This document shows positions 1,667-63,565 of a stretch of 64,000 nt of DNA, piece after piece. A program made the position numbers and the translations under genes. Below the pieces are notes generated by a model that was given only the letters and a program-made list of their open reading frames with translations, was not told the DNA's origin and searched no databases. Source of the DNA: a phage. The stretch is taken from sequence record PZ445443.1; one strand, 5' to 3'. The stretch's first letter is position 1, and every line of letters begins with the position of its first letter.

Positions 1667-3734
1667 ATTTATGGCATCTGCATACAACCGTTTCGGTGAG
1701 CCAAACCCGAAAGCAACTAAGTATAAAAGTGGGGGAAGTGTGAAACGAGACTATCGTGATGAAAAAGAAGTTGAAACTGTAGAGACTGTTTTAGAAAATA
1801 CTAAAATTGTCCCTGTCCCACAACAAAATATCGGTCTGATGGCTGCACAATATTTTGGTGTGCGATCAGCATTGTCACAAGAAGACGGTGTGACAGTCAC
1901 TGCAACATATTTCCCATATTACGACCGCTACGGAAATCTGTCCGGTTTCAAAAAGCGTGACTGGACGATTCCTAAAGAGCAAAGGGGCCATTTCTCAGTT
2001 GTTGGCATAGTAAAGGCTAACTCTCAGATGTTTGGGCAAAAGCTGTGTGCATCTTCCAACAACCGTAAGCAAATTAACGTTTGTGAGGGGGAAGGTGATG
2101 TTATTGCAGCATGGCAGGCTGCATATCAGATACAAGTAAAAGGGATTCTCACCAACGCTAAAGCCCCGGCAAAGGTGAAGCAGTGGGCTAAAGAGGTCCA
2201 GGACGGGATCGACGCAGTTATCAACGGTGGTGATCTGGCAGGAAAACCCTGCCTGCCTTTTGTTGGAATTAACTGTGGATGTGCAAACGCAGTAGATACT
2301 TTTGCAAACAATGAGAAGTTTATCCGTAGCTATGGAACAGTTGTGCTGGCAATGGATAACGATGCAGCTAACGAGGTAGAGAAGCAAAAACACGTCATTA
2401 AAGGTGTTGAGGCCACGCACAATATCGCAGCATTTTTGATGGCCGATAACGTTTACCACGTAGAATACCCTGGTGAAGTAAACGACCCTGACGGTGTAAA
2501 AGATATCCGAGACATGCTGAAGGCTAAAAAGCTGGAAGATATTGTCAACATGTTCCGGCACCCTGTTAAATATGTGCCTGATGCTGTGTCGGATTTAGAA
2601 GACTTCTCTATCGAGTCTTTGCGGAAAAAGACTTCCAACGGGGTAGATATCAGCGCAGAGTTCCCAAAACTGCAAAAAATGCTAAAAGGCTTGCACAAAG
2701 GGACACTCGTAATGCTTACAGGTCCGTCAGGTGGCGGTAAAACAACCGTAGCTAAAAAACTGGAACACTGTATTGCAAGATACCTAATGGACCCGACATG
2801 TCCGAAGGCCGATGACTACGAAGAGGATGATCGTCTATGCATGATCCATCTTGAGGAGGACCCAGAGGAAGCAATTAACTCCTTGTATGCAAACCAGTTA
2901 GGGTTTGATGTTAAAGAGTTTGTTGAAGATCCTAGCCAGTTTTTAACTGATCAAGAACACGCAGAGATTCACCAATCATGGGCAAAAGCTGGAAAAATCA
3001 AAGTGTTCAAACATTTCGGATCTATTCCGGTGGACGAGTTGATTACTAAGCTTAAGCAAATGGTTTGCCTGTACCATTGTCGTTATATTGTACTGGATCA
3101 CCTGTCCATGGTAATTTCAGGGCTTAATGTTAAGGATGAGCGAAAAGAACTGGACATGGCTATGACCCAACTGGCTGCGTTTTGTAAGCAGTTTAACGTG
3201 TTTATCTTGGTGATCGCTCACCTCAAACGTACAGAGATTGTGCCTCCTAAGGACAAGGATGGTAACCCGTTACCTTTCTGGTATCCTGTGCGAAAAGAGA
3301 ATTTGCGAGGATCGGCGGGGCTTGAACAGTTGAGTTGGGTAGTCATAGGTGTCGAGGCCGAAGAAATGGTGGATCGTTCTCGTGGACGTGTCCGTCTGGT
3401 AGGTCTTAAAAACCGTCCAGCAAAAGCTCTAGGTATTGCTGACACTTTGGTTATGGACCCGCACACAGGTAAGTTCCATGATGCCAGTAATTGGTACTGG
3501 GACAAAGAAATGCAAATGTTTACAGATGGAGAAGGTGGGGAGGTTGTTTGGAGACCTCAGGCTATGTTTGAGGATCAGGAGCATGCAGTTGTAGAAACAC
3601 CTATGGGCAAGGTTGTGGCTGATAAGGTTGTAACTCCTACTGTTAAGCCTGTTGACACGCAGGAAGAACTCCAGTACGATGATCCGTCCTCTGACCATGT
3701 TCCTGGTTTTGAGGATGATGAAACACCTTTTTAA
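1656..3734 (+). CDS. DNA primase/helicase (TOPRIM primase fused to DnaB-family helicase)
   Basis: TOPRIM motifs CEGEGD and LAMDNDAAN; Walker A GPSGGGKTT; Walker B-like IVLDHLSMV; AAGGAG RBS; 692 aa. Confidence 0.8.
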   Translation: MGSKFMASAYNRFGEPNPKATKYKSGGSVKRDYRDEKEVETVETVLENTKIVPVPQQNIGLMAAQYFGVRSALSQEDGVTVTATYFPYYDRYGNLSGFKKRDWTIPKEQRGHFSVVGIVKANSQMFGQKLCASSNNRKQINVCEGEGDVIAAWQAAYQIQVKGILTNAKAPAKVKQWAKEVQDGIDAVINGGDLAGKPCLPFVGINCGCANAVDTFANNEKFIRSYGTVVLAMDNDAANEVEKQKHVIKGVEATHNIAAFLMADNVYHVEYPGEVNDPDGVKDIRDMLKAKKLEDIVNMFRHPVKYVPDAVSDLEDFSIESLRKKTSNGVDISAEFPKLQKMLKGLHKGTLVMLTGPSGGGKTTVAKKLEHCIARYLMDPTCPKADDYEEDDRLCMIHLEEDPEEAINSLYANQLGFDVKEFVEDPSQFLTDQEHAEIHQSWAKAGKIKVFKHFGSIPVDELITKLKQMVCLYHCRYIVLDHLSMVISGLNVKDERKELDMAMTQLAAFCKQFNVFILVIAHLKRTEIVPPKDKDGNPLPFWYPVRKENLRGSAGLEQLSWVVIGVEAEEMVDRSRGRVRLVGLKNRPAKALGIADTLVMDPHTGKFHDASNWYWDKEMQMFTDGEGGEVVWRPQAMFEDQEHAVVETPMGKVVADKVVTPTVKPVDTQEELQYDDPSSDHVPGFEDDETPF

Positions 3735-3749
3735 TGTTTAACAAAGAGT

Positions 3750-3778
3750 GGGAGGGGTAGTACAACCGCCTCCCCTTT
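3750..3778 (+). terminator. putative intrinsic terminator
   Basis: GGGAGGGG...CCGCCTCCCC imperfect hairpin followed by TTT, directly after primase/helicase stop. Confidence 0.4.
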
Positions 3779-3792
3779 AAGGAGAACTGTAT

Positions 3793-6570
3793 ATGAGCAT
3801 GTGGTCTTTCGATTTTGAGTCATCCGGTTTGCTGGAAGACCCAGATCTTTATTATCACTGCGGCCTGTTTAAAGAGCTGAATAAGAACCGTTTTATGCTG
3901 TTCCTTCCTCTAAATGACCGCACACACTACTCCGAGGAGGATATAGAGAAGGCTAAGAACTTTATTCTGGCAAAGAAAACTCTTTATAAAGATTTTGAAG
4001 TTCGCATAGCAGATTTTTCGGAGTTAGAAGGTTGGCTTACAGGCAATTCCGACTGGTCACCAACAGCTTTGAACTGCCATAACTGCTACAGTTATGACTT
4101 TATGCTGATGGAAAGATTATCCGGTATTCATTTTGATATGTTCCGTGATCCTAAATGCATGGGGACTATCAACGACCACCAGGTCAACCTGTTTGATACG
4201 TTGGCGATGAGCCGAATCTTATGGCCTGATCGCCCTTTACCAAAAGGTTGTCCGGACTCTGTATTCAACCCGGTTACTAAGAAAATGCAGCCTGTCGGTC
4301 CTCACGGCCTTATGGCATGGGGCTACGCCCTTGGTAACCAGAAAGTTCAAATTGATGACTGGCGCGATCTTCCGTTGTGGAAGTATGTGGATCGTGTATT
4401 CGAGGACGTTATCATCCAGGAGCTGCTCTGGAAAGAGCTGGTAGCGGAATCAAAAGGTGTATTCTACGGCAAATCTGACATGCAGAACTTTATGTACGAT
4501 CCTGCCAAAGAGAAGCCGAAAGGGTTCAAGAAGATCACCTGGAAGAACGCATTACGCCGAGGCATGCTGCAGCACTTCCTGATGGAGCTGCAGGCCCGTC
4601 AGGGTGTGTATTTTGACATAGATGGGGCTATTGCTTTACGTGACCGTTGCGATGCGTGGATGAAAGAAATCGCTGATCGTGTTGAACCGCAACTACCTTT
4701 AAAAGAGCTGTCAATGTCTCAGCGGCCCAAGTTCCCTGAAAAGCCGTTTAACCAAGATGGGACAATCTCCAATAATGGTTGGAAATGGTTAAAAGATAAG
4801 CTTGGCTATCCTGTAGATATGAGCGCTTTAGAGTTCAAAGCCCCGCCTAAGCGAGCATTTACCTCTACAGGAGATGTCAGTAAGATGGGGATAAAATGGT
4901 GTGAAGAGATGGGCTGCAAAGACCCCGATAAGATGGCTGATTTCTTGAGAGGCTATATTAAGGGCACCTCCACACCACAACCTTTACCTAAAGAGCTAAT
5001 GGATCAGGCAATAAGTGATCTACAGCAGAAGCGAATGCCGGACTGCAAGATACCTATGAAAATCAGCAACCAGGACGACATTAAGCGATACCTGATCAGT
5101 GCTGGTTGGCTTCCGACAATGTGGAGAACTAAGGATGTAACTAAAGACAGCAAGAAGAAAGCTCTACCTGATGCAGATGTTGATGCACGAGTATATGCAT
5201 ATATGGACGAGCTTTTAGAGTCAGAGTATTGTGACCTGATTATCAACTTCTGGAACAAAACTGATGCTAAGTTCCAGACAACCGTGCACAAGTTCCGAAG
5301 CTTTCCTAACTCCGAAAGGATTAAAAAGGAAGTATTCGGGAAAATACGTAGAAAAGCTAGGGCACTTATTACTTCTCCGCAACTGAAAGATACGTTTGGA
5401 CACCTATGCCCTAATCTTGAAAAATTGAACGGAGAGATGGCTAAAGATATCGTCTTGTGGTTATCATTGCGAAACCGCAGATCGGTACTTGATCCAATCA
5501 AGGAGGATAAGGTTGATACTGGTCTTCTTAATCACCCACGTTTGAAGATTGACCATAAGCTTCCTGCTAAAAGTTCTGGGTTAACAAACACTTCCCGACA
5601 GAAACACAGTATTTGTGCAAACATGCCTAAACCATCTCCTAAAGTGGTTATGGGTAAAGAGATGCGTAGTCTGTGGGGTGTTCCTCCAGGATACTTTGAG
5701 ATCGGTATTGACGGGTCCAACTTAGAGCAGCTTATCGGGGCTTGGGGTGCCTTTGAGTTCGACAACGGCCTGTATTACGATGTTGTAAGTAACGGGGACG
5801 CACACCAAAACAATGCTGAGGCATATACAAAAGTAGCAGGTAGAGAGGTGTCTCGTAACGACGGTAAACCTATCACGTATGGGGTTATGTATGGGGCACA
5901 AAAAGATAAAGTTGCAGATATGCTGGACATCTCTCCAGAGTTGGGACAAAGGGTAATCGATGCACTCTGGGATGCCAACCCTGGTCTTAAGGGGCGTAAA
6001 GAAGATCTGGAGAAATTCTGGGAAGCAACGGGTAAGAAGTTTATCTACTCTTTTGATGGTCATGCTATCTGGACCCGATCTAAACACTCTTTACTTAATG
6101 CATACCAACAAAATGGCGGCGCATCGTTGTGTGACTTAGTTGGGATACTCATGCACCATCAAATGGTGAAGCGTGGGTGGTACGATGAAGGTGTTCGTCG
6201 TATTATCTATTACCATGACGAATATCAGCTTCAAGTCCCTGACACACCGAAGTATAAGACTGTGTACACCTTCGACACAATCGAAGAACTGGAAGCATTT
6301 AAGGCAGAGCAGGAGGCCAAACTTCATGTGTTCGACGGTCATAAGTACAAAAAGGCACGCAAGGATGAGGACGGAAACGAAGTGGTTGACAGAGACGGAA
6401 ACACGGTGTACGATCCTATCCTGAACGATGACGGAAAGCTTGAACTTATCTGGAGCCCTGTGGGTGAAATGGTGGTGCATTGCTTCTGGCAAGCTTCTAA
6501 AATGATGGGCGTCCCGTTCCAGATCACAGGTGAATACCTGTGTGGTCGTAATTGGGGTGATTGTCACTAA
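3793..6570 (+). CDS. DNA polymerase, family A (T7-like) with 3'-5' exonuclease domain
   Basis: Exo I FDFESSGL; motif B-like KPITYGVMYGAQKDKVADML; motif C YHDEYQLQV; AAGGAG RBS; 925 aa. Confidence 0.85.
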   Translation: MSMWSFDFESSGLLEDPDLYYHCGLFKELNKNRFMLFLPLNDRTHYSEEDIEKAKNFILAKKTLYKDFEVRIADFSELEGWLTGNSDWSPTALNCHNCYSYDFMLMERLSGIHFDMFRDPKCMGTINDHQVNLFDTLAMSRILWPDRPLPKGCPDSVFNPVTKKMQPVGPHGLMAWGYALGNQKVQIDDWRDLPLWKYVDRVFEDVIIQELLWKELVAESKGVFYGKSDMQNFMYDPAKEKPKGFKKITWKNALRRGMLQHFLMELQARQGVYFDIDGAIALRDRCDAWMKEIADRVEPQLPLKELSMSQRPKFPEKPFNQDGTISNNGWKWLKDKLGYPVDMSALEFKAPPKRAFTSTGDVSKMGIKWCEEMGCKDPDKMADFLRGYIKGTSTPQPLPKELMDQAISDLQQKRMPDCKIPMKISNQDDIKRYLISAGWLPTMWRTKDVTKDSKKKALPDADVDARVYAYMDELLESEYCDLIINFWNKTDAKFQTTVHKFRSFPNSERIKKEVFGKIRRKARALITSPQLKDTFGHLCPNLEKLNGEMAKDIVLWLSLRNRRSVLDPIKEDKVDTGLLNHPRLKIDHKLPAKSSGLTNTSRQKHSICANMPKPSPKVVMGKEMRSLWGVPPGYFEIGIDGSNLEQLIGAWGAFEFDNGLYYDVVSNGDAHQNNAEAYTKVAGREVSRNDGKPITYGVMYGAQKDKVADMLDISPELGQRVIDALWDANPGLKGRKEDLEKFWEATGKKFIYSFDGHAIWTRSKHSLLNAYQQNGGASLCDLVGILMHHQMVKRGWYDEGVRRIIYYHDEYQLQVPDTPKYKTVYTFDTIEELEAFKAEQEAKLHVFDGHKYKKARKDEDGNEVVDRDGNTVYDPILNDDGKLELIWSPVGEMVVHCFWQASKMMGVPFQITGEYLCGRNWGDCH

Positions 6571-32900: not shown

Positions 32901-33293
32901 TTACTGAAACAGTGCGGATAAATTACCTTCTGGTGGGAACTTATCTGCCAAAAACGGTGTTAGCACAGTAGCCTTCTGAAGATCTGGGGTCCACTCGTTG
33001 TTCAGAACATCCCAGTAGTACGCAATGTTGCTGTGTGGGTGCCGCATTACGAACTTTTTCCCTTCGTAGTCATCTGAAACCTCTACAGAAGAAATGACAA
33101 CAGAATCTTCAAGTTCTTCATAGAAAGATCCGCCTTCAAATTTCCAACGAGATGCAAGAGCCCCTGCCTTGAACGCTGCAGATAACGGACTGTCGGCAAG
33201 AACATACATTTCTTGCACTCTGTCGCTGCGATCTTTGCTTCTTACGTTGTATACAGTATCTGAGCTATACTCAACACGGTATAGGCTTACCAT
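32901..33293 (-). CDS. hypothetical protein (paralog family C)
   Basis: Shares HP...YWxxxxxxWTP segment (VMRHPHSNIAYYWDVLNNEWTP) with 35100-35498. Confidence 0.5.
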   Translation of the reverse strand: MVSLYRVEYSSDTVYNVRSKDRSDRVQEMYVLADSPLSAAFKAGALASRWKFEGGSFYEELEDSVVISSVEVSDDYEGKKFVMRHPHSNIAYYWDVLNNEWTPDLQKATVLTPFLADKFPPEGNLSALFQ

Positions 33294-33652
33294 TACCGCA
33301 CCTCCTCAATAACTTCCACATCTGAACCCACCACAAATGCAAAAGGACAGGTTTCATGAAAGACATCCGGATCGCCGCCAAGCTTGCTAACAATTTCTCC
33401 ACCACTAATAAACACAAGCTCACCGATATTCATCAGATTGCTGAAATAGTATCCATAATGATTAAAGAATGCAGCAGGGTCAGGTAGACTAGTAGCCTCA
33501 AGCACTACATCGGTTGAGGTTACTTTCTTATCATAGCCTCTCGCCTTCTGAGATGCAAGATCTGCAGAATCCTCAGGCGACCGGAGATGCACAGGAATTG
33601 TTTCACCAATAAAGCGTACTTTCATATTATCACCCAACAACCATAGCTTCAA
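33293..33652 (-). CDS. hypothetical protein (paralog family A)
   Basis: Contains MKVRFIG and C-terminal FAFVVGSDVEVIEEV like 35511, 35755, 39410. Confidence 0.5.
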   Translation of the reverse strand: MKLWLLGDNMKVRFIGETIPVHLRSPEDSADLASQKARGYDKKVTSTDVVLEATSLPDPAAFFNHYGYYFSNLMNIGELVFISGGEIVSKLGGDPDVFHETCPFAFVVGSDVEVIEEVR

Positions 33653-33893: not shown

Positions 33894-33984
33894 ATAGTAT
33901 CACCTCTGGTAAGAGATTGGGATTCCTTTCCCACAAATAATTACAAACCTTCCTTGTCGAGGAAGTATGCTAATCCAAGCAGGA

Positions 33985-34254
33985 TTATTCCTCTACAATC
34001 TCATACACATCCGGAGTTACAATCAACTCTTCTCCGTTACCCGGTGCAACAAACACCACCAAACCTTCAGGTGTGTGCTTTTTAGCCATCTCGATAACAT
34101 CTTCTCGCAGAGCTGGCTCCATCAGATCAAAACCTTCACCCAGGGCATCACGAACCACCTTCATATAGTCAACTGGTTGTGCTTCGACAATCATGCCTTC
34201 AACCAGTCCACAGTTTTTGTCTGCCAGCTCAGTTTTGAATAATTTAATTTTCAT
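33985..34254 (-). CDS. hypothetical small acidic protein (paralog family B)
   Basis: MKIKLF start, C-terminal VYEIVEE. Confidence 0.5.
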   Translation of the reverse strand: MKIKLFKTELADKNCGLVEGMIVEAQPVDYMKVVRDALGEGFDLMEPALREDVIEMAKKHTPEGLVVFVAPGNGEELIVTPDVYEIVEE

Positions 34255-34280: not shown

Positions 34281-34382
34281 TTAATAGCCGTAACCTAACA
34301 CATTAACTACAACTGCGATTGCAAACATAATTTCAAAGCATGCAATCTCTACATTTGGGACTAATTTCTTAATCACGCCCAT
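34281..34382 (-). CDS. small hydrophobic peptide (33 aa)
   Basis: ATG after GAGGTG; MGVIKKLVPNVEIACFEIMFAIAVVVNVLGYGY; RBS overlaps the hpf stop. Confidence 0.3.
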   Translation of the reverse strand: MGVIKKLVPNVEIACFEIMFAIAVVVNVLGYGY

Positions 34383-34391
34383 TGTAGCACC

Positions 34392-34709
34392 TCATTCTCC
34401 AAAGTCAATCTTTACTTTGCCTTTCCCCTTACCTTTCTTTCCACCGCATTTAGCCAGCTGACGTGCTGCAACATCTACCATACGGTCAGTTGCCTCGTAA
34501 GCATCACTACCTTTAGCCTTGGCAATAACTTCTTTTCCAGAAGTGTCAAAAATGAACGCCATAACTTCCTGGTGATCATTTTCAACTTTTACACTTACAC
34601 GTGCATGATTTACAGAAGGATGTAGACGCTCCAGTTTTGACATTTTGTGGGAAATGAAAGACACCATGCCTTCGGTGATTTCTACGTTGCCAGTGATCTC
34701 AATTTGCAT
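34392..34709 (-). CDS. hpf: ribosome hibernation promoting factor / RaiA (YfiA) homologue
   Basis: MQIEITGNVEITEGM...KLE...VKVE...G.E.IAKAKGSDAYEATD...ARQL aligns along its length with E. coli HPF (MQLNITGNNVEITEAL...KLEQ...LKVEK...EGQDMYAAIDGLIDKLARQL); own promoter and RBS. Confidence 0.8.
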   Translation of the reverse strand: MQIEITGNVEITEGMVSFISHKMSKLERLHPSVNHARVSVKVENDHQEVMAFIFDTSGKEVIAKAKGSDAYEATDRMVDVAARQLAKCGGKKGKGKGKVKIDFGE

Positions 34710-34756
34710 AACGTGTTCCTTTTAAAGAAGAGGGAATAACTCTCTCTTTGAAAACA

Positions 34757-34785
34757 ATAATACTATAGCTGAAGCGTTGTGTCAA
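34757..34785 (-). promoter_or_regulatory. sigma70-like promoter for hpf (reverse strand)
   Basis: Reverse strand reads TTGACA, 17 bp spacer, TATTAT. Confidence 0.55.
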
Positions 34786-34791
34786 CAGTTT

Positions 34792-35082
34792 TTACAGATT
34801 GTTGTCGATAGTATTTAAAATATCCACAGCAAGATTTGCCATTTTTCGAACATACTCTGCAAACTCAACAGGATCCTTGATCAAAGAATTTACAGGGTCG
34901 TACCCTAGAGCGTTCAAAATGGCTGCAGCATCTACAACCTTTTCATCATTTGCAAAGATCTCTCCGTCAAACTTATAGGTCCATTTTGAGTCAATCTTGG
35001 CAGGGCATGGCTGGTCCATGCTTGTTACACCATCGTCTTTAACCTCTCCTGCGTTATCAATATTCAGAACTAAATCCATCAT
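34792..35082 (-). CDS. hypothetical protein
   Basis: Co-oriented ORF upstream of hpf promoter. Confidence 0.5.
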   Translation of the reverse strand: MMDLVLNIDNAGEVKDDGVTSMDQPCPAKIDSKWTYKFDGEIFANDEKVVDAAAILNALGYDPVNSLIKDPVEFAEYVRKMANLAVDILNTIDNNL

Positions 35083-35099: not shown

Positions 35100-35498
35100 T
35101 CAGTTTAGCTTTTCTTCAACAACCCCATAGCTCGGGGCAGAGTCAAGAGCTTTTTGGTTTAAAAGTGGTGTAGCAGAATCTGCAAACGGTGTCCAAGTTT
35201 TTGTTCTGGCATTCCAGTAATGCTTCACTCTGGAATCTGGATGCACTATAACAAAAACTTTTTCACTTGTCAACACATTAATTTCTTCTACACCCTTGCT
35301 GATAATTTCTCCGTCATAGCCCCCAGTCTGGTATCCTTCGTACCAGGTTCTTGCATAGGCATAGCCAGCCTGCCAGCATGCAGCCTCCTCCGAGGTGGAG
35401 ACTACGTAGAAGTCTTTCTCAAATTCTGGAATACGCCCTTGCTTTACGCTCCAAGCTCCGCGAATTTTCATTGTAACTTTAAACAGTTTATTTTTCAC
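35100..35498 (-). CDS. hypothetical protein (paralog family C)
   Basis: VIVHPDSRVKHYWNARTKTWTP matches the 32901 paralog. Confidence 0.5.
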   Translation of the reverse strand: MKNKLFKVTMKIRGAWSVKQGRIPEFEKDFYVVSTSEEAACWQAGYAYARTWYEGYQTGGYDGEIISKGVEEINVLTSEKVFVIVHPDSRVKHYWNARTKTWTPFADSATPLLNQKALDSAPSYGVVEEKLN

Positions 35499-35510
35499 AA
35501 CGGTTACCCA

Positions 35511-35765
35511 TCACAGCTCTACAATATCTGCATCTGACCCTACCCCAAAGGCATAATAGGACTCTTCCCCGAAATAATATTCAGGTGCACCAGCGGTGAT
35601 CAGGTCTGATCCCAAGATAAACACCACGTTGTGGCCTACATAACTGTGATGTTGCCGCACAGGATCATCCCACGGCAACCCTTCAAAGTATACCGCAGGA
35701 ACTACCTTTCCCTTCAGGAAGGATTGTCCCAAGTAGACGTTAGAATCAAGAATTTTAACCTTCAT
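35511..35765 (-). CDS. hypothetical small protein (paralog family A)
   Basis: MKVKILD, GKVV, DLITAGAPEYYFG motifs. Confidence 0.5.
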   Translation of the reverse strand: MKVKILDSNVYLGQSFLKGKVVPAVYFEGLPWDDPVRQHHSYVGHNVVFILGSDLITAGAPEYYFGEESYYAFGVGSDADIVEL

Positions 35766-35982
35766 GATCGTCCTCCACTACCTCTACATCCTCGCCTAGG
35801 GCAAAGTTGTAGGTCCACTGACTGTCAAAGCAGTCCTGAGGTGCACCAGCGGCAATAAGATCTGCTCCTTTTATTTTTAAAAGGTCAGGGTAATCTTCGT
35901 TAGGGACAGCAGTAAACACTTTTCCTACTAAAGGCTCCTGACCAATATAGAAGCTTGAATCTAAAACTTTAACTTTCATCAA
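35755..35982 (-). CDS. hypothetical small protein (paralog family A)
   Basis: MMKVKVLD, GKVF, DLIAAGAP, EVVED motifs. Confidence 0.5.
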   Translation of the reverse strand: MMKVKVLDSSFYIGQEPLVGKVFTAVPNEDYPDLLKIKGADLIAAGAPQDCFDSQWTYNFALGEDVEVVEDDHEG

Positions 35983-45130: not shown

Positions 45131-47254
45131 TCAGCAACCACAACTTCCGTAGTGCTTAACCCGTTCTATAACTTCCGCTTGCTTACCTTTATTGTAAGGA
45201 CGGGAGTTAGGACTGGAAAGGTATCCAGACACACGTCGAATTACGCTGATCGTTCCCTCTTCATGGTTTCCACACTCTGGGCATACAAAGCCTTTAGCTG
45301 TTGCACTGAACTCACCAGAGAAACCACACTTGAGACATTTATCCACAGGCTGGTTGATACCAAAATACATAATGTGTTTATATCCGAAATCAACAAGAGC
45401 TTCCAAAGCATCTAAGTTGTTTTTCAGATTTGGTGTCTCTACGTATCCGATGTTGCCACCAGAGGAGATCATAGCAAAACCTTCCTCATACTCCCACTTA
45501 TCAAAAGGAGAGCTATTGATCCATACTGGCTGATGGAAACTGTTGGTGAGATATTCATGCTCGTGCTTCAACACTTCCGGATATTCACGATCCAGACAGG
45601 TTGCAGCTTTATAGCATAGACTCTCAGAAGGAGTGCCGTACAAGCTAAATGCTAGTCTACTTTCCTTCTTGTATCGCTCACAAGCATCTCTCATGTGCTG
45701 AAGTATTCCAAGAGCTAAAGCCTTGTCACCCTCCCTGCCCAAAATCTGACAGGTTTCATACACACCAATATACCCAATACTGATGGAAGCGTACCCGTCA
45801 TAGAAGAGTTTATCAATACTCTCTTCAGGATCCAGGCGAGCAAGAGCGCCTTCACACCACATGATGGGGTTCTGCCCTGCCTTTGTTCCTTTTAGACGGT
45901 TAACCCTTACAAGGTGAGCCTCGTATGCAAGATTCAGGTATTCGTCAAGAACTGCAAAGAAATCAACACCTTCCGTTTTAGCTTTTGCCGCAATCATTGG
46001 CAGGTTAAGGCTAACAACGCCTAAGTTAAATCTGCCAAGGTATTTCTCCTCGCCTGTTTCCAAGTCATTGTATTTGCTAAGAAAACTCCGGCAACCCATG
46101 CTCGTTACTTTGCCATCTGTCGAGCCTGTCACTTTACTATTTAGTGGAACAGAAACAAAGTCAGGATAAATCCGCTCTGCAGAGCATTCCAGAGCTAATC
46201 GTTTCAAATCATAGTTGGGATCTCCAGGGCTCATGTTGACACCCTCTTCTAGGAAGAACAGCACTTTAGGGAACACAGGTGTGATACGTTCTTCACCAAG
46301 ACCCATTTTGTGGACTTTCAAGTAGTTTTTGGTAATCATTCTACCAAAGACCGAGGTATCCAGTCCTAAACTTAATGTGATGAATGGAGTTTGCCCGTTG
46401 ACAGAGGTTAACGTATTGATTTGATATAGCAAAGTCTGCATGCTGTCAAATACGTCTTTATCTGTCATTTGCATTGCAACAGTCTCAGCATCTGGCAACC
46501 AGTGTTCCTGGCAAAATTTAAGGTTCTTCTCATAGGTCGCCTCAGCATACTGTGCCAGATAATGATCAATATGGCTCATAGTCTGACCCCCATATTGAGC
46601 ACTAGCTACTGCACTAGAGATTTGGCTAAGGATTGTTGTTGCAACCCCTATTGACTTCGGCTTACTGACATGGGCGTTACCAATGTTGAATCCGTTTTCC
46701 AACATATCTGGATAATTTACCAAACAACAGTTTGTTAACGGACTGATCAAGTAGTCAAGATCATGCACATGGATGAAGCCTTTATTGTGCTCTTCTGAGA
46801 CACGGTCTGGCAGGATCTGTGTTGATGCAAGGTGTTTGCTAAGGATGCCTGCAAGCAGGTCACGATGAGTGTGTACATGATTGGTAGGCTTATTTGCGTT
46901 TTCTTTTGTAAATTCATCACAAGTTCGATCCAAGAAGCCACTAATATCTGCAAGCAGTTTTCCACCTGCCTCTCTGTTATTATCTCTTGTCTGTCTATAC
47001 TGGATGTATTCTCTGGCTGCACATTTTAAACCCATATCCATAAGAGCATCTTCAACAAGGATATGGATATTTTTTACAGAGATCGTGCACTGATCGGTTG
47101 GTAGATTGTTAGCAACAACTTCATTAACCGCACAAGCGATCCGGTAAGCTTCTTCTTCAGTATGTCCAGACTCAAGTAAGGCGGACTCTGCCGCCTTGAT
47201 CACCTTAATTCCGTTATAGACCTCTTCTCTACCGTCCCGTTTTACAACTTTCAC
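45131..47254 (-). CDS. nrdD: anaerobic ribonucleoside-triphosphate reductase, class III
   Basis: C-terminal CLKCG...CPECG zinc ribbon followed by glycyl-radical motif RRVSGY; 707 aa. Confidence 0.85.
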   Translation of the reverse strand: MKVVKRDGREEVYNGIKVIKAAESALLESGHTEEEAYRIACAVNEVVANNLPTDQCTISVKNIHILVEDALMDMGLKCAAREYIQYRQTRDNNREAGGKLLADISGFLDRTCDEFTKENANKPTNHVHTHRDLLAGILSKHLASTQILPDRVSEEHNKGFIHVHDLDYLISPLTNCCLVNYPDMLENGFNIGNAHVSKPKSIGVATTILSQISSAVASAQYGGQTMSHIDHYLAQYAEATYEKNLKFCQEHWLPDAETVAMQMTDKDVFDSMQTLLYQINTLTSVNGQTPFITLSLGLDTSVFGRMITKNYLKVHKMGLGEERITPVFPKVLFFLEEGVNMSPGDPNYDLKRLALECSAERIYPDFVSVPLNSKVTGSTDGKVTSMGCRSFLSKYNDLETGEEKYLGRFNLGVVSLNLPMIAAKAKTEGVDFFAVLDEYLNLAYEAHLVRVNRLKGTKAGQNPIMWCEGALARLDPEESIDKLFYDGYASISIGYIGVYETCQILGREGDKALALGILQHMRDACERYKKESRLAFSLYGTPSESLCYKAATCLDREYPEVLKHEHEYLTNSFHQPVWINSSPFDKWEYEEGFAMISSGGNIGYVETPNLKNNLDALEALVDFGYKHIMYFGINQPVDKCLKCGFSGEFSATAKGFVCPECGNHEEGTISVIRRVSGYLSSPNSRPYNKGKQAEVIERVKHYGSCGC

Positions 47255-47529
47255 TTTTTCTCTCCAAAACCATTCTTAACAAAAGAGATGAAATCGTCGG
47301 CACCGCCTATATGGACACTTTCAAGATTGCTTTCTAAGAAGATCTGCGGCAACGTTCTGGGTACGATTGGACTGCACTTCTCAATAAGCTCTTCTTTTGT
47401 GTAACCCTCGCCAAGTGTCTTATATACAAAAGGCAGACCTTTACTGACTGCAAATTCTTTTGCTCTTACACAATGTGGGCAGTTATCTTTACCGTAAATA
47501 ATAAAGAAAAAAGATTTTTCACAGCTCAT
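47251..47529 (-). CDS. glutaredoxin/NrdH-like redoxin
   Basis: CPHC active-site motif in a 92 aa protein between nrdD and nrdB. Confidence 0.65.
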   Translation of the reverse strand: MSCEKSFFFIIYGKDNCPHCVRAKEFAVSKGLPFVYKTLGEGYTKEELIEKCSPIVPRTLPQIFLESNLESVHIGGADDFISFVKNGFGEKK

Positions 47530-47532
47530 GTA

Positions 47533-48621
47533 TTAAAACTCCCAAATTTCTTCTTCAGCGTCATTAACAGTTGTGTTGACGCGGTAGTCAGTGTTCGACA
47601 TTTCTTGGTTCGCCGTCTGTTGCAATGAAGGTTTCATCCACACCTGCATAAACGGTAGAGGGTCCTTTGTTGGCGGCACAAAGTCTTTGTCGATGCCGTA
47701 GTAATCATAAATCGGTGAGCAGTTATAGTCAACCCATTCTTTAAGCAACGGTGAGTTAAGACCTATAATCGCTCTTCCTTCGCTGAAAATATAGTCACTC
47801 CAACCGTACTCTTTGGTTCGTACTTCATCAAGAATCTCTTTTAACTCCCCTTTTATCTCAAGGAAGCTTTTCTCCCATGCTGGATCATTAAGCAGGATAT
47901 CAATGATGGCAAAATCACCTTTCGAGTGTAGCATTTCGTCAAGCATGATTTTTTGAACAAGCTGCGCCACCTGAACAAAAATACCCTGTTCAGCTACTGC
48001 GAAAGTGCATGCAAAACTTGCAATAAACTCAATACTCTCCAGAGCTAAAAGTGCAAAAAGCGCTCTAAGAATGCATTTCCGCACAACATCTTCTTCAACA
48101 CTAGAAGGATCCAGTCGGTATTTTGCACCAATAACCTCAAGCTCTTGCATATATTTGACAATAACGCCGGATCTGCTCAGAACGTTTTGGTTTTCCTGAA
48201 TCTCTTCTATAATCTCACGGGCATTGGGGAGGCATTGTCTAACAATCTCTGAGTAAGTTAGTGCGTGAAGAACTTCAATCTCTGACTGTTTCATCAATAG
48301 AGTGAAAAGCTCACTATTGGTGATAAATGGTGAAAACAGACAAATGATAGATCTTGCCGCAACGCTATCAGCCTCCCATTGCCACATCAAGGTCTGCACC
48401 ATCACGTCATAAGTTGACTTTGAGCATGTTACAAAATCTGAAATAGATTGCGACAAATCCACTTCATCCTCTGCCCAGTCTTGTTCTTTTTGTTTTTTGT
48501 ATAGTTCAAACAGTTGTGGATATTTTTTGTTGATAGAGTCGTACATACCCATTTGCTGTCCCAGAAACAGCGGATAGTCACCAGTTTTATGAGCGGTGTT
48601 CTCAGCATTAAATACAGCCAT
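47533..48621 (-). CDS. nrdB: ribonucleotide reductase small (beta) subunit
   Basis: Di-iron ligand segments (LESIEFIASF, LDEMLH); AGAGG RBS. Confidence 0.8.
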   Translation of the reverse strand: MAVFNAENTAHKTGDYPLFLGQQMGMYDSINKKYPQLFELYKKQKEQDWAEDEVDLSQSISDFVTCSKSTYDVMVQTLMWQWEADSVAARSIICLFSPFITNSELFTLLMKQSEIEVLHALTYSEIVRQCLPNAREIIEEIQENQNVLSRSGVIVKYMQELEVIGAKYRLDPSSVEEDVVRKCILRALFALLALESIEFIASFACTFAVAEQGIFVQVAQLVQKIMLDEMLHSKGDFAIIDILLNDPAWEKSFLEIKGELKEILDEVRTKEYGWSDYIFSEGRAIIGLNSPLLKEWVDYNCSPIYDYYGIDKDFVPPTKDPLPFMQVWMKPSLQQTANQEMSNTDYRVNTTVNDAEEEIWEF

Positions 48622-48633
48622 TATTCTAACCTC

Positions 48634-48656
48634 TAAAATGGGGCCGAAGCCCCTTT
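48634..48656 (-). terminator. terminator-like hairpin between nrdA and nrdB
   Basis: Reverse strand GGGGC-TTCG-GCCCC followed by ATTTTA; weak T-tract. Confidence 0.35.
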
Positions 48657-48660
48657 AAAA

Positions 48661-50976
48661 TTATAGTGCACAGCTTTCGCAATACGGATCTTCAACTGAA
48701 CTATCTGCAATCAAAGGATAGTTCTTTCTGGTTTCATCTTCAGCCTGTTTCTTGGCATGAAGTTCCTCTGCCAAGGAGTCACCAGCACCAACCCTAGAGT
48801 TTAAATAATACCATGTCTTCATCCCGAATTTAGTGGCACGGATAAGGTACCCTAGCTGCTCCTTCATTGAAATTTTACCATCTTTCAACTTGGTGTAGTC
48901 TATGTATAAATCCGCGCTGATTGCCTGACCTGTGAATTTTTGAATCACAGCATACATATCGATCATGTCGTTAGTATCAACGTCCCAAGCCGAAGTGTAA
49001 TACTCTTTCAACTCATCATAGTCAGGAACGATAAACAGCACCTGCCCTTGTGGCGACTTTTTAAAGATAATGTGCTCACGGACAGGATAAACCCCGTTAG
49101 TGGTGTTTGTTGCCAGCGAAGAGCTTTCATTAGGCATATATGCTTCAAGAACGCTATTACGTAGCCCACCATTTTCAATGATCTCTTTACGTAACCCTTC
49201 CCAATCCTGTTTAAGAGAAGGATCTTTCACCACGCTATCGACCTCTTTGTTATAGGTGTCGATTGGTAACCAACCTTCTGGATATTTTGTCTTATGCATC
49301 CACTCGCAGACACCACGCTCTTTTGCCAACCGTAAACTTGCCTTATGCAAGCTGTAGCTGTGAAGTTCTGCAAGATCGTGAACAAGCTGTTTACTTTCAG
49401 GAGATCCGTAAGCAACCTTGTGGCTGGCAATAAAATGTGCAACATTGGTAAGGCCAACCCCGATGGATCTGCGTTTTTTAACAGTGCTCTCCATATTTTC
49501 ATACGGATATGTCATGATTTCCATAACATTGTCAATCATAAGCACCGTGTAGTATGCAACATCCTCATACTCCTCTGGGGTAACCCTTCCAGCTACAAGG
49601 GATGACAGGAAGCACAATGCAACCTCACCATCATCAACATCGTACTTGAAGATATTACGCATATCTGAATAGCCTTTTGTCGGGAGGGCTATTTCTGCAC
49701 ACAGGTTACTTGAATAGATCACATCTTTAAAAGGTGTATGTCTATTCATCTCATCTGTCCAGTATACGAACAGCCTTCCAACCTCAGTACGCTGCGTGAG
49801 CAGTTCAACAGCAAGATCTCTAGCTCGGATCCATGTTTTAGGAATACTGTCATCTTTAGCGATACGATCAACCTCTGCATCAAACTCCTCCATAGACATG
49901 GTGAAGATACCCTCATGCAGTTGAGGCGCGTGCTTATAAGAAACAAGCATCCAATCCAAATTCTTAGCCACACGGTTGATAAACGACCTATTAATACCGA
50001 TGGAGTAGTCCATGGTGTTGATTCTTTTTGAAGCAACAGTCATAGGGTTTCTCAAACGGATTAGCTCATCAATCTGCGGGTCCAGTGCAAGGAATGATAC
50101 TGTTGCAGAACCGCCACGTGATTGTTGTCTGTTCTCCTTAACACCAGCATCAATACCTCGATAATATGGAATCTTACCCATATGTTTAATAGTGTTACCA
50201 CGAACACCATCGCCTGCAGATCTTGAGGATAAGTAGTAGCCGATACCTGCTTGGTTAACCGTCATTGTGTACGCAACTTCACGTGCCACACCAATAGATT
50301 TTGCTGTATCATCAGCTTTTATTACACAACAAGATGCATACCCTGTCTTACCTGTACGCAGCCCGTTTAAGTACGGTGTCGGAGCATTGATCTTTAGGTC
50401 GGACAGATAAGTGTATAATTTTACAACATCGTTGATACGACGTTCTTTCGGCATATTCTTCATGACAGCCATTGCTATCCCCATAAACATCATCTGGGGA
50501 GATTCAAACAGGGTGTCTTTAAGAGTATCCTTGATCCCGTATTTGTCGCGAAACTGTTTAAGGACTGCATAGCCATAACCGAGATCTTTACTGTGATCAA
50601 TAACAGTGCCTAAAGTGTTTAACTCGGTAAAGCTATAACCCATATCCTCCCAATACCCTTTCTCAACCATGTCGTTGTAAAATGATGGTAAGGAAGGGAT
50701 CTTTGTAAACCCTCCAAAAGCCTCTTTATAAATCTGACCAATAAGAACACGACCAGCCATACGGGAATGTGCTTCGTCTTTACGGCTAACACAGGAGTCT
50801 ATGATAGCTTGGTTAACTTCTTTGGTCGTACATCCATCATACAGTCGTTTGTATGCATCCAGTGCAATGTGTGACCAATTGCCGTTACCGTCGTCACCGA
50901 AAATAGCTGCCTTATTTAAACGTTCTGGATCGAATGCCACTTCACATCCGTTGCTTTTAATTACCTTGGTGATCAA
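48661..50976 (-). CDS. nrdA: ribonucleotide reductase large (alpha) subunit, class I
   Basis: N-terminal ATP-cone (VIKSNGCEVAFD); active-site SSNLCAEIALP; 771 aa. Confidence 0.85.
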   Translation of the reverse strand: MITKVIKSNGCEVAFDPERLNKAAIFGDDGNGNWSHIALDAYKRLYDGCTTKEVNQAIIDSCVSRKDEAHSRMAGRVLIGQIYKEAFGGFTKIPSLPSFYNDMVEKGYWEDMGYSFTELNTLGTVIDHSKDLGYGYAVLKQFRDKYGIKDTLKDTLFESPQMMFMGIAMAVMKNMPKERRINDVVKLYTYLSDLKINAPTPYLNGLRTGKTGYASCCVIKADDTAKSIGVAREVAYTMTVNQAGIGYYLSSRSAGDGVRGNTIKHMGKIPYYRGIDAGVKENRQQSRGGSATVSFLALDPQIDELIRLRNPMTVASKRINTMDYSIGINRSFINRVAKNLDWMLVSYKHAPQLHEGIFTMSMEEFDAEVDRIAKDDSIPKTWIRARDLAVELLTQRTEVGRLFVYWTDEMNRHTPFKDVIYSSNLCAEIALPTKGYSDMRNIFKYDVDDGEVALCFLSSLVAGRVTPEEYEDVAYYTVLMIDNVMEIMTYPYENMESTVKKRRSIGVGLTNVAHFIASHKVAYGSPESKQLVHDLAELHSYSLHKASLRLAKERGVCEWMHKTKYPEGWLPIDTYNKEVDSVVKDPSLKQDWEGLRKEIIENGGLRNSVLEAYMPNESSSLATNTTNGVYPVREHIIFKKSPQGQVLFIVPDYDELKEYYTSAWDVDTNDMIDMYAVIQKFTGQAISADLYIDYTKLKDGKISMKEQLGYLIRATKFGMKTWYYLNSRVGAGDSLAEELHAKKQAEDETRKNYPLIADSSVEDPYCESCAL

Positions 50977-62299: not shown

Positions 62300-63565
62300 T
62301 TATTCCAGCACCTCCCAAGTTTCTGGATTAAGATTGCGGAATGCGATACCCACAGGGAATTGAGGCACACCGTCCACCGTACGCTGTTGGAATTTTATCG
62401 TGATAAATTTGCCAACATATGAGCAGCATTTTTCGTAGTTCCTTACGGCAAAAGTGCCTTTCATTTTGCATTTGCATTGTGTCCCATCTTTCTCTTCGCA
62501 GATAAGAACACCTTCTCCGTTTTTATCTTTTTCAACACCGATCACTTTTGCTTCAACATCGGTGAACAGTTTCCACTTGAGCAGATCAGTAGAGCGTTGA
62601 CCGTATTCGTAGGTGCCACGGAAGTTACGAATAATAGATCCTTCATAACCTTCCTGCATGTACTGTCCGATGGAGTTGCGAACCTCTTCCTCGTTGTAGG
62701 CGATCTTGAAAGGAACACCCTCGACGTTGGTGAGATGGTTAACTTCACAATAATCAATAACTTCCTGAAGATTTGTGGCCCGATCTTCCCAGCGATGGAT
62801 GCAATCAGGAACATCGAACACCATCAGTTTCAGGTCATAAGAGCAGTAACCTCCATACCGATCAGAATCACGGACAGGTTCTTCATAAACCGGATGATCA
62901 ACCTTGTTGAAGTCTTTCCAGGTCTCCTCTCCGGCCTTGATCGCTTTCTCACGGCGTTTTATGTCTGCCATGAAGTCCTTATCAATTTCTTTCTCAATGT
63001 CTTCCAGACTACGCCATTTCTTAACGAGGGAGGTTATTTTCTGCAACGGTAGACCGTGAATGTAGAACTCTCCATCAAATTCATCAAAGCCTGTTTCTTC
63101 ATGCAGGTCTTGTAGCTCACGGAGGATGTTACCTTTCGGCTCATACACTTTGTTACCGCGAGAGATGAATTTAGGTACACCGTCTACGAATTTGACAAAG
63201 CAACGGTTCCCGTCAAGTTTGTGTTGCAGGTGGCATGGATACACAATAGCGTGTGGTTTTTTCGAAGCATCTTGCGCCAGCATAGGTGAAATGTCAATGG
63301 CCTCAAGGTCTTCGACATTTTCTTTGTAACCCAGCCGGACTTGCTTTTCCCATTTAGACTGCGCCTCTAAAACAGCTTGTTCTTCTGCTGTAGTTTCGTT
63401 GGATCGCCCGATGTTTTTGGCTTCACATTTTGTGGTTTTTGATTGTACAGCGCCACCAACCCTGCCGAACACAACAATAACCTCGTTGCCGCTTGTATCG
63501 ACTTTCCACATCTGGATGGACCCGTCTTTATTGCGAGCATAAAGTGTTGTTTTGAATTGATGCAT
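62300..63565 (-). CDS. ATP-dependent DNA ligase
   Basis: Adenylation motif I KxDGxR (HKLDGNRCFV); 421 aa. Confidence 0.75.
   Translation of the reverse strand: MHQFKTTLYARNKDGSIQMWKVDTSGNEVIVVFGRVGGAVQSKTTKCEAKNIGRSNETTAEEQAVLEAQSKWEKQVRLGYKENVEDLEAIDISPMLAQDASKKPHAIVYPCHLQHKLDGNRCFVKFVDGVPKFISRGNKVYEPKGNILRELQDLHEETGFDEFDGEFYIHGLPLQKITSLVKKWRSLEDIEKEIDKDFMADIKRREKAIKAGEETWKDFNKVDHPVYEEPVRDSDRYGGYCSYDLKLMVFDVPDCIHRWEDRATNLQEVIDYCEVNHLTNVEGVPFKIAYNEEEVRNSIGQYMQEGYEGSIIRNFRGTYEYGQRSTDLLKWKLFTDVEAKVIGVEKDKNGEGVLICEEKDGTQCKCKMKGTFAVRNYEKCCSYVGKFITIKFQQRTVDGVPQFPVGIAFRNLNPETWEVLE

Follow-up and report, generated by a model that had tools for sequence, protein, structure and literature searches.

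A diverged HPF/YfiA-family gene in an rV5-like phage: family membership, expression signals and possible action on the ribosome

Does a phage protein of the ribosome hibernation factor family still act on ribosomes and, if so, to what effect? The question is raised by an open reading frame (ORF) in a 64,000-nucleotide stretch of phage DNA (sequence record PZ445443.1; hereafter the window). A preliminary description, made from the letters alone, had taken the product for an HPF/RaiA homologue with a promoter of its own and for a host ribosome-silencing factor. The flanks in the window are 96–98% identical to Vequintavirus genomes, which identifies the source as an rV5-like E. coli phage and bears out the viral origin assumed in that description. 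No tRNAs or Rfam families were found in the window. The positions of the features are given in Table 1.

The gene itself is known. It is the homologue of rV5 ORF144 (ABI79209; GenBank record DQ832317; 97% identity), that is, the same gene in the same synteny behind a homologous promoter, and the two proteins differ at three residues (V33, H35, and T56 in the window; A, Y, and N in rV5). The rV5 record labels ORF144 a "sigma 54 modulation factor" and annotates the promoter as P144. The exact window protein is on record under the name "ribosome hibernation factor [Escherichia phage DrSchubert]", and a protein of phage BP9 is 100% identical to it; a word-indexed homologue search returned five proteins only. 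Gene, promoter, and hibernation-factor hypothesis have thus been recorded and published before.

Table 1. Features of the hpf-like locus (window coordinates).
Feature	Position	Strand	Remarks
Sigma-70-type promoter (= rV5 P144)	34757..34785	-	TTGACA (34785-34780), 17-nt spacer, TATTAT (34762-34757)
5' untranslated region	34710..34756	-	candidate GA/CU hairpin (~34749-34724) and Shine-Dalgarno AGGA
HPF-like ORF	34392..34709	-	ATG start, 105 aa, TGA stop
HPF core-encoding part	34446..34709	-	profile matches, AF2 model, Foldseek, dN/dS
Lys/Gly-rich C-terminal tail (GGKKGKGKGKVKIDFGE)	34392..34445	-	codons 89-105 and TGA stop
Candidate second promoter TTGACT-16-(TGc)TACAAT	34381..34408	-	10/12 positions and extended -10 TG
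33-aa hydrophobic ORF (MGVIKKLVPNVEIACFEIMFAIAVVVNVLGYGY; rV5 ORF145 homologue)	34281..34382	-	starts 9 nt past hpf stop
89-aa acidic ORF (rV5 ORF146 homologue)	33985..34254	-	matches phrog_11868 (function unknown)
Candidate weak terminator-like hairpin (CTTCCTCGACAAGGAAG then GTTTGTAATT)	33949..33965	-	20 nt past ORF146 stop

Family membership and predicted fold

No competing ORF of at least 40 aa lies on the plus strand over the HPF-like ORF. Its product matched the Pfam profile PF02482 (Ribosomal_S30AE) with E = 4.4e-13 and 50.2 bits against a cut-off of 23.7, residues 3–88 aligning with positions 1–83 of the 88 in the profile, and passed TIGR00741 with 50.0 bits against a curated cut-off of 40.9. 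The S30AE profile search, which had been proposed as a check, therefore placed the 105-aa protein in the HPF/RaiA family. The accompanying estimate of roughly one-third identity to HPF/YfiA has to be divided: identity is higher for E. coli HPF (40–42% over 88 aa) and lower for E. coli YfiA/RaiA (23–24%). The closest sequences with a solved structure are E. coli HPF entries (E ~1e-12). The residues that are near-invariant in the family, as judged from alignments with 18–27 cellular members, are all present (G7, T12, K22, G58, D69, Y71, D75, and Q84 in phage numbering).

At the level of the individual families the scores were lower. The HPF equivalog NF007780 gave 57.5 bits, below its cut-off of 125, and the RaiA equivalog NF007654 gave 20.3 bits, below its cut-off of 158. 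Given this distance and the low identity to RaiA, the name "RaiA" in many RefSeq records is to be read as a family-level name only.

The AF2 model (pLDDT 80) contains strands at residues 2–7, 33–43, 46–55, and 60–67 and helices at 13–29 and 70–92, and the order of these elements matches that of the HPF/YfiA superfamily. Foldseek aligned the model to V. cholerae HPF (4HEI) with TM 0.94 and to E. coli HPF in the 100S ribosome (6H4N chain x) with TM 0.90. By profile, fold, and near-invariant residues the product does belong to the HPF/YfiA family, and the Vequintavirus hpf-like gene is a genuine but strongly diverged short form.

Both the scores and the identities lie closer to HPF than to RaiA, and among structures the top match is the HPF of the E. 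coli 100S ribosome. This is what one would expect of a classical hibernation-promoting factor that binds the decoding site tightly, stabilises RMF-induced 100S particles, and silences host translation. The C-terminal tail departs from that expectation. The Lys/Gly-rich stretch CGGKKGKGKGKVKIDFGE holds six Lys and carries a net charge of +4, in agreement with the preliminary description; its residues 91–103 are predicted to be disordered (pLDDT <50 in the AF2 model), and it accounts for the 10 residues by which the protein exceeds E. coli HPF. Counted after Lys87, 18 residues follow in the phage protein as compared to 8 in HPF and 26 in YfiA. In YfiA the longer tail goes with inhibition of dimers: the extension points toward the RMF site, and RaiA inhibits the assembly of 100S by RMF. 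The phage protein shares with E. coli RaiA/YfiA (protein Y) the fold, the family, and a C-terminal extension past HPF length, but their tails bear no resemblance in sequence and have opposite charges (+4 over 18 aa in the phage, -3 over 26 aa in YfiA). The end of the tail varies among relatives, with forms of 99, 101, 103, 104, 105, and 106 aa, and two of the tail-length forms arise from frameshifts in a G/A-rich tract (phages Murica and APECc02).

Expression signals and downstream genes

The promoter matches the sigma-70 consensus at 11 of 12 positions and is preceded by an A-rich stretch, TAAAAACTG. Its -35 box and the preceding CTG were invariant in all 17 related loci examined, and the -10 box, TATTAT in the window, reads TATCAT in rV5 and most relatives. 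A Shine-Dalgarno AGGA lies at 34720-34717, 7 nt 5' of the ATG. Promoter and ribosome-binding site are thus where the preliminary description had placed them on the reverse strand. An "own promoter" is indeed present, but it does not distinguish this gene: the strict pattern TTGACA-N16-18-TANNNT occurs at 36 sites in the window as compared to 2.9 ± 1.7 in shuffled sequences, these sites follow gene orientation, and we therefore rejected the promoter as a special trait, since it is one of 36 equivalent sites. Loose promoter-like sites showed no excess in the 10-kb neighbourhood (26 vs. 20.4 ± 4.0 in shuffles).

The GA/CU hairpin in the 5' untranslated region was also considered, on account of apparent compensatory changes among relatives. 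It was dropped, as its energies were no better than those of shuffled sequences (-5.3 kcal/mol and z = +0.44 in the window; z from +0.65 to -1.69 overall), and covariation was confined to one pair in two of nine sequence variants.

Downstream, a second promoter-like site runs across the end of hpf (codons for K-I-D-F) and into the start codon of the small ORF that follows. Its 16-nt spacing was constant in six representative variants counted by hand, though the encoded C-terminal residues differ, and a divergent lineage (loci L004-L006) carries AAACTGTTTACA-17-TACACT immediately 3' of its hpf stop. The site is without annotation in the rV5 record; it may act as a promoter. The 33-aa ORF that begins here, called a putative membrane protein in some records, is missing from the same divergent lineage, and in locus L012 its ATG is changed to ATA. 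The 89-aa ORF occurs only in the 117 Vequintavirus records that also carry hpf, and the unit beginning at the hpf promoter probably ends with it. Terminator-like sites in the region were no commoner than in shuffles (9 vs. 6.6 ± 2.8), so the hairpin behind this ORF is listed as a candidate only. Host sigma-70 RNA polymerase would transcribe the hpf-like gene, presumably early, from one of the many consensus promoters of the phage, and the gene would be the first of a small unit comprising hpf, the hydrophobic ORF, and the acidic ORF.

Distribution and selection

The hpf-like gene was found in 117–118 records, while the genus-level NrdA was found in 119, so that about 117 of 119 Vequintavirus members carry it. 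A 64%-identical orthologue occupies the syntenic position in a more distant phage lineage, whose neighbouring genes have diverged to a similar degree; a search of IMG/VR did not recover the divergent lineage P0004. A single match below 1e-10 turned up among 1.84 billion representative proteins, and it came from the other phage lineage; cellular matches in the same set were 30–44% identical, with E values of 8e-8 or weaker. As judged from these searches, the Vequintavirus proteins form an isolated clade, all cellular relatives found being at most 44% identical. The recent host-to-phage transfer suggested by Mizuno et al. is unsupported by cellular representatives this distant.

Jumbo enterobacterial phages also encode HPF-like proteins with the S30AE fold and a length of ~110 aa (K4F6Q6 of Cronobacter phage GAP32 and L7TII8 of Escherichia phage PBECO4). 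Mizuno et al. listed GAP32 together with rV5 (PMC6375957). These proteins are 21–25% identical to the window protein and belong to PHROG 8990, whereas the Vequintavirus clade belongs to PHROG 12469, which points to independent acquisitions in the two groups.

Within the genus, the core of the gene gave dN/dS values of 0.02–0.10 at dS of 0.25–0.6; between the two phage lineages synonymous sites are saturated and the ratio is not computable. The gene is thus under strong purifying selection, and this bears on whether it may be a neutral passenger or what is left of a captured and now decaying host gene, in either case without a part in infection. Such a reading could draw on isolate YP-6, which has a TAA at codon 4, on the frameshifted tails of Murica and APECc02, and on the position of the gene among small accessory ORFs in a block specific to the genus. 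The early stop and the two tail frameshifts do indicate that the gene is dispensable for laboratory propagation. However, constraint of this strength despite substantial synonymous divergence, retention in nearly all members of the genus, and survival of the orthologue in a lineage with similarly diverged neighbours make a passenger very improbable indeed.

Ribosome contacts and proposed mode of action

An experiment of the kind proposed in the preliminary description has been published for the rV5 protein, which was expressed in E. coli NM522 from pBAD24 and harvested at OD600 = 1, the ribosomes being pelleted through 500 mM NH4Cl before peptide analysis (Mizuno et al. 2019, Nat Commun 10:752, PMC6375957). 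No peptides were detected in the 70S or 100S fractions, though the protein was present in the crude extract, and expression caused no discernible change in 100S (PMC6375957). Mizuno et al. considered the negative ribosome result inconclusive and named dissociation in the stringent salt wash among the possible reasons (PMC6375957). A search of the literature for later functional work on phage HPF returned only this study and a mention in Mathieu 2020. The two observations, no increase in 100S and loss from the salt-washed ribosomes, are compatible with a protein that binds weakly and leaves dimer formation unpromoted. High-salt washing removes host hibernation factors from ribosomes as well.

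We compared the window protein with E. coli HPF (YhbH; PDB 2RQL, 4V8H, 6H4N) at the ribosome-contacting residues, using the contact list of bioRxiv 2025.10.07.680626. The two proteins share the fold and, in the 88-residue core, K23, K26, E60, D69, Y71, D75, R83, Q84, K87, and K91; the phage protein has one residue fewer in the beta1-alpha1 loop and one extra in the beta3-beta4 loop. Contact positions K26, E60, D75, R83, K87, and K91 are kept, Q29 is Arg, and the replacements are R17V, Y30L, T53F, H55F, K80V, K89G, and K93G. Changes affect six of the roughly 14 named contact positions, and about half of the published contacts are replaced, including Lys80 (Val) and Lys89 (Gly), described as "strictly conserved", and the uS9-contacting His55 (Phe). 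With 6 of 14 identical against 40% for the protein overall, the contacts have been conserved no more strictly than other positions.

The residue patterns of short HPFs give the same picture. Of the five residues examined for the short-HPF type, three are kept, the exceptions being Lys80 and Lys89, at whose positions the divergent lineage P0004 has Thr and Ser, respectively. In the His55/Glu60 pair, which contacts the uS9 C-terminus, Glu60 alone is retained, and in the Thr53/position-62 motif, which contacts m2G966, the residues are Phe and Ile; both patterns depart from those of short HPFs. Position 62 is Val in P. aeruginosa HPF.

These results weigh on the classical hibernation-promoting reading. 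The unchanged 100S and the lack of peptides in the 100S fraction set the rV5 orthologue apart from E. coli HPF, Lys80, Lys89, His55, and Thr53 are replaced, and the tail is of a length that in YfiA goes with inhibition of dimers. No RMF homologue was found in the window (tblastn with an approximate E. coli RMF query; best E = 3.4), and a phage that needs the same ribosomes would presumably be harmed by early, general silencing. We consider a classical factor distinctly improbable despite its closeness to HPF in sequence and structure. The preliminary claim of a "host ribosome-silencing factor" is accordingly unsupported as worded: no peptides of the orthologue were detected in salt-washed 70S and 100S ribosomes and 100S was unchanged, the equivalog scores lie below their cut-offs, and several conserved contact residues have been lost.

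The same observations could instead mean that stable ribosome binding has been lost altogether and that the dsRBD-like scaffold has been turned to a different use. It might bind another RNA (phage or host mRNA, or tRNA), serve as a decoy where a host defence detects or attacks hibernation factors, or act as a small-molecule sponge. The negative co-purification of a protein that was expressed, the replacement of contacts at the rate of any other residue, the isolation of the clade, and a purifying selection that implies some maintained function would all be accounted for. A precedent for the sponge is Acb4 of Bacillus phage SPO1 (PDB 9E4W), an anti-CBASS nucleotide sponge with a dsRBD-like fold that its discoverers likened to V. 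cholerae HPF (4HEI). Acb4 does appear in our fold search, but its match (TM 0.51/0.60, E = 0.03) was far below those of HPF; 9E4W was absent from the sequence matches at E up to 1, and Acb4 is without the S30AE signature residues that the window protein keeps. Further, the near-invariant family residues are retained together with Arg83, Lys87, and Lys91, a poly-Lys tail suits rRNA binding, and the salt wash offers another account of the negative result. A new function of this kind is therefore possible but, in our judgement, unlikely.

We favour, at a probability of roughly 0.45, a ribosome-directed protein that occupies idle ribosomes in the manner of YfiA and binds them weakly; its mechanism is pieced together as follows. 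The target would be the tRNA/mRNA channel of vacant 30S or 70S ribosomes, contacted through the retained helix-2 residues Arg83, Lys87, and Lys91 and helix-1 residues Lys23 and Lys26, and the flexible poly-Lys/Gly tail may add RNA contacts. Since Lys80, Lys89, His55, Thr53, and Tyr30 are replaced, host HPF would probably bind more strongly, and the phage protein would come off more readily. The tail, longer than that of HPF, would make for YfiA/RaiA-like rather than HPF-like behaviour: the protein would occupy idle ribosomes and compete with host HPF and RaiA, and it would not promote RMF-dependent 100S dimers. As an outcome, ribosomes may be kept as protected, quickly reusable 70S during infection. 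That the window protein binds ribosomes at all we infer from the retained residues and the fold, and that its effect is protective and directed against 100S formation is our guess. Against this weak, YfiA-like occupant stand the missing rV5 peptides in 70S and 100S, the replaced contacts, the equivalog scores below their cut-offs, the stop codon of YP-6, and the two frameshifted tails.

A bolder version would hold that the clade is no longer a hibernation factor but an old phage-adapted derivative without stable ribosome binding, acting as an anti-hibernation or anti-dormancy competitor or on an Acb4-like non-ribosomal ligand. It would agree with the isolation of the clade, the replacement of about half of the contacts, the strong purifying selection, and the negative co-purification, but we rate it as rather unlikely. 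If its competitor form were true, the action of RMF, HPF, and RaiA would be blocked, and the phage could exploit starved or defence-arrested cells.

Since the gene, its promoter, the hypothesis, and a first experiment were already known, what the present analysis adds is modest: the clade diverged long ago and is under strong constraint, its ribosome-contact surface has been remodelled, and its poly-Lys tail varies. These features sharpen the question of whether the protein binds ribosomes at all. Translation factors encoded by phages illustrate how a virus can adjust the ribosomes of its host. The rV5-type phages are in wide use against E. coli O157, both in therapy and in biocontrol, and a phage version of a hibernation factor could account for the way they deal with hosts that grow slowly or lie dormant.

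Family membership, expression signals and neighbourhood

The product of hpf, the flagged 105-aa ORF, is an HPF homologue. In the profile check proposed by the preliminary description it scored above cut-off against Pfam Ribosomal_S30AE (50.2 bits, E = 4.4e-13, residues 3-88, cut-off 23.7), and it likewise passed TIGR00741 'HPF/YfiA family' (50.0 bits, cut-off 40.9). By sequence, the best-matching solved structures were those of E. coli HPF (2RQL, 4V8H and 6H4N, E ~1e-12), and RaiA/YfiA structures reached an E of about 0.05 at best. Identity to E. coli HPF and YfiA was 40% and 23% in the multiple alignment, and 42% over 88 aa and 24% over 93 aa by tblastn. Foldseek searches with the predicted model returned V. 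cholerae HPF (TM 0.94, rmsd 0.9 Å) and HPF in the E. coli 100S ribosome (TM 0.90). Judged by the equivalog models for HPF (57.5 bits, cut-off 125) and RaiA (20.3 bits, cut-off 158), the protein classifies as an HPF/YfiA family member that is the equivalog of neither host factor.

The ORF, promoter, ribosome-binding site and tail (C-terminal end CGGKKGKGKGKVKIDFGE) named in the preliminary description were all found in place. No overlapping ORF of at least 40 aa was present on the opposite strand over hpf, and the gap between the preceding ORF (stop at 34792) and hpf measures 82 nt.

Features of the hpf region (window coordinates)
Feature	Position	Strand	Remarks
hpf ORF	34709..34392	-	105 codons, ATG to TGA
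-35 box TTGACA	34785-34780	-	in the 82-nt gap upstream of hpf
-10 box TATTAT	34762-34757	-	17-nt spacer after TTGACA; promoter matches 11/12 consensus positions
Ribosome-binding site AGGA	34720-34717	-	7 nt 5' of the hpf ATG
Second promoter-like site TTGACT-16-(TGc)TACAAT	34408..34381	-	overlaps last hpf codons and start codon of 33-aa ORF
33-aa hydrophobic ORF	34382..34281	-	starts 9 nt past the hpf stop; MGVIKKLVPNVEIACFEIMFAIAVVVNVLGYGY
89-aa acidic ORF	34254..33985	-	after the 33-aa ORF
Weak terminator-like hairpin	33965..33949	-	after the 89-aa ORF
Paralogous ORF pair, phrog_7379	32901-33293; 35100-35498	-	27% identity, E = 9e-9
Second small-ORF family	33293-33652; 35511-35765; 35755-35982	-	

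The strict pattern TTGACA-N16-18-TANNNT occurred at 36 sites in the 64-kb window, compared with 2.9 +/- 1.7 in shuffles, and many sites had A-rich sequence upstream. These sites track gene orientation: those at 806-25,932 lie on the + strand, with two exceptions, and those from 28,751 onward nearly all on the - strand. The strand switches in the interval from about 25.9 to 28.7 kb, and the pattern points to two divergent blocks of host-polymerase-dependent transcription. Given so many orientation-matched sites, the 'own promoter' previously ascribed to hpf is in all likelihood real, yet it is one of dozens and gives no sign of special regulation. Its -35 box was unchanged across 17 related loci, including a lineage with an only 64%-identical protein; the -10 box is TATTAT in the window and TATCAT in rV5 and most relatives. 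Because these promoters are of the consensus host type, hpf can reasonably be expected to be transcribed early by unmodified host polymerase.

The 33-aa ORF downstream of hpf, whose product is probably a small membrane peptide, is missing from the divergent phage lineage described below, and in one further locus (L012) its ATG reads ATA. The second promoter-like site, which is unannotated in the rV5 record, had a constant 16-nt spacing in six representative variants (counted by hand), the encoded C-terminal residues varying, and in the divergent lineage a promoter-like AAACTGTTTACA-17-TACACT lies immediately 3' of the hpf stop. On these grounds, the terminal 'KIDF' may owe its conservation to a DNA signal no less than to the protein. 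The cassette lies between two copies of paired paralogous small-ORF families, which suggests a possible old duplication around it (32901-33652 and 35100-35982). Neither an RMF homologue nor a tRNA or Rfam match was found in the 64-kb window. Large ORFs in 1656-6570, 45131-50976 and 62300-63565 belong to replication and nucleotide-metabolism modules, with matches to a DnaB-like helicase, an ATP-dependent DNA ligase, and ribonucleotide reductases of the anaerobic (NrdD) and aerobic (NrdA/NrdB) types; the match to a family A DNA polymerase was weak and below cut-off.

Distribution and selection

The 1.3 kb around hpf showed 96-98% identity to 117 phage records, nearly all of them Escherichia phages of the genus Vequintavirus (rV5-like myoviruses, about 137 kb). 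With the protein as tblastn query, 118 phage records were matched, 117 at >90% identity. A search with phage NrdA returned 119 records at >=95% identity and 62 more at 80-90%, presumably sister genera, and none of these 62 gave a tblastn match to hpf. By this comparison the gene is near-universal in the genus and missing from its nearest described relatives. The distribution of the 89-aa flanking ORF matches that of hpf. Eighteen MG0656xx 'Campylobacter phage' records share 96-97% identity with this region of an E. coli Vequintavirus. The single record opened was marked UNVERIFIED, gave C. jejuni as host and was classified as Vequintavirus; these records probably name the wrong host, or else contain carried-over E. 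coli phage.

Among 1.84 billion representative proteins, an exhaustive HMMER search gave a single match below 1e-10, a 103-aa protein (P0004) with about 64-65% identity and a different basic tail; the other 39 matches (E <=0.001) were 27-44% identical. P0004 is encoded on contigs that reach about 137 kb in E. coli sequencing runs (Logan assemblies ERR6997038, ERR4623478 and SRR25571739). Synteny with the window extends over 8 kb of these contigs, the neighbouring proteins showing 31-93% identity, so P0004 is the hpf orthologue of a more distant phage lineage. That lineage was found neither in the phage-record collection nor in IMG/VR, and it is apparently an undescribed Vequintavirus relative. 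The HPF-like phage clade is old and isolated, and a 'relatively recent' transfer, as proposed in 2019, does not fit this.

Within the genus, dN/dS of the 88-codon hpf core was 0.02-0.10 at dS 0.25-0.6. A neutral passenger gene is highly improbable in the face of these ratios and of the near-universal presence in the genus. Natural disrupted alleles do occur. In YP-6 (OQ376695) hpf codon 4 is changed from GAG to TAA, possibly by sequencing error, and the annotators restarted the protein at Met15. The extreme C-terminus is labile, with forms of 99, 101, 103, 104, 105 and 106 aa among relatives; two of these are frameshifts, 1-nt indels in the G/A-rich tail tract of Murica and APECc02 that yield 99-aa and 101-aa products (again possibly by sequencing error). 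Taken together, the comparisons show an expressed-looking S30AE-family protein that is maintained by selection and present in practically every member of a single virulent phage genus.

The ribosome-contact surface

The key contacts of short HPF on ribosomes of Gram-negative bacteria were taken from a recent cryo-EM study (bioRxiv 2025.10.07.680626). They comprise the 'strictly conserved' Lys80, Arg83, Lys87, Lys89 and Lys91 of helix alpha-2, and position 93; His55 and Glu60 (contacting the C-terminus of uS9); Thr53 and position 62 (contacting m2G966); Lys26, Gln29 and Tyr30 (contacting A790 and nucleotides 1496-1498); and Asp75. These positions were mapped via the multiple alignment, in E. 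coli HPF numbering. Lys26, Glu60, Asp75, Arg83, Lys87 and Lys91 were kept, so that 6/14 positions are identical, no better than the 40% overall identity. Gln29 was conservatively replaced by Arg; the changed positions were Tyr30 (Leu), Thr53 (Phe), His55 (Phe), His62 (Ile; Val in P. aeruginosa HPF), Lys80 (Val), Lys89 (Gly) and Lys93 (Gly). Arg17, basic in most cellular members, is Val. After Lys87 the phage protein continues for 18 residues, including 6 Lys (net charge +4), compared with 8 residues in HPF and 26 (-3) in YfiA, and this charge may offset the charges lost from the contact surface. With the near-invariant family residues and Arg83, Lys87 and Lys91 kept, a polybasic tail and an unchanged fold, we infer that the product would still address vacant ribosomes.

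Previous work and possible function

Both the gene and the hypothesis attached to it are already known, from the rV5 annotation, a deposited protein and a published test. In the rV5 record (DQ832317) the homologous ORF144 is labelled 'sigma 54 modulation factor' and a 'Sigma70-type promoter; P144' stands at the homologous place; elsewhere the gene goes by HPF, RaiA or 'ribosome hibernation factor', and an identical protein is deposited as 'ribosome hibernation factor [Escherichia phage DrSchubert]'. Annotations have drifted among the GenBank records (e.g. KR698074, MN850578, MN850612, OR062525 and MT884008). APCEc02 carries 'sigma 54 modulation factor' on the adjacent 89-aa ORF, for which there is no S30AE match. 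From there the misplaced label seems to have passed into many later entries, the nomo record's note naming APCEc02 as its source, and the true hpf ORF is called 'ATP-dependent protease La type I' in some records.

Mizuno et al. (2019; PMC6375957) tested the rV5 protein, which they listed as one of the ribosomal proteins encoded by viruses, expressing it from pBAD24 in E. coli NM522, harvesting at OD600 = 1 and pelleting ribosomes through 500 mM NH4Cl. There was no 100S increase, and the protein was lost from the 500 mM NH4Cl-washed ribosomes (PMC6375957). The gene was mentioned again by Mathieu et al. (2020), and our literature search found no later functional work on it. The preliminary description had proposed 100S measurements, which have thus already been made once, and had suggested that the phage manipulates host translation with a ribosome-silencing factor. 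Its family assignment and phage context held, but the silencing function is unsupported, the one published test being negative. Classical 100S promotion that silences host translation is accordingly unlikely, with that result and the changed contact residues against it and a phage that itself needs ribosomes.

We consider it somewhat less improbable, though still doubtful, that the HPF fold was neofunctionalised away from the ribosome. This would agree with the negative co-purification, with the isolation of the clade and with contact positions that are conserved to an unremarkable degree, and the phage sponge Acb4 is a precedent for re-use of an HPF-like fold, although that parallel is a weak match (TM 0.51/0.60) with no sequence similarity.

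Our leading reading, to which we assign a probability of roughly 0.45, is that the protein occupies idle 70S or 30S particles in a YfiA-like manner. Binding would be weak and reversible, would not promote 100S formation and may compete with host HPF, RaiA and RMF. The extended tail, the replaced contacts, the unchanged 100S level and the loss at 500 mM NH4Cl point in this direction. High-salt washing also removes host hibernation factors from ribosomes. YfiA's tail runs in the direction of the RMF site, and dimerisation mediated by RMF is inhibited by RaiA; the phage tail is likewise extended. What remains of interest is the function of this HPF-like protein and a contact surface that has been remodelled under strong constraint.
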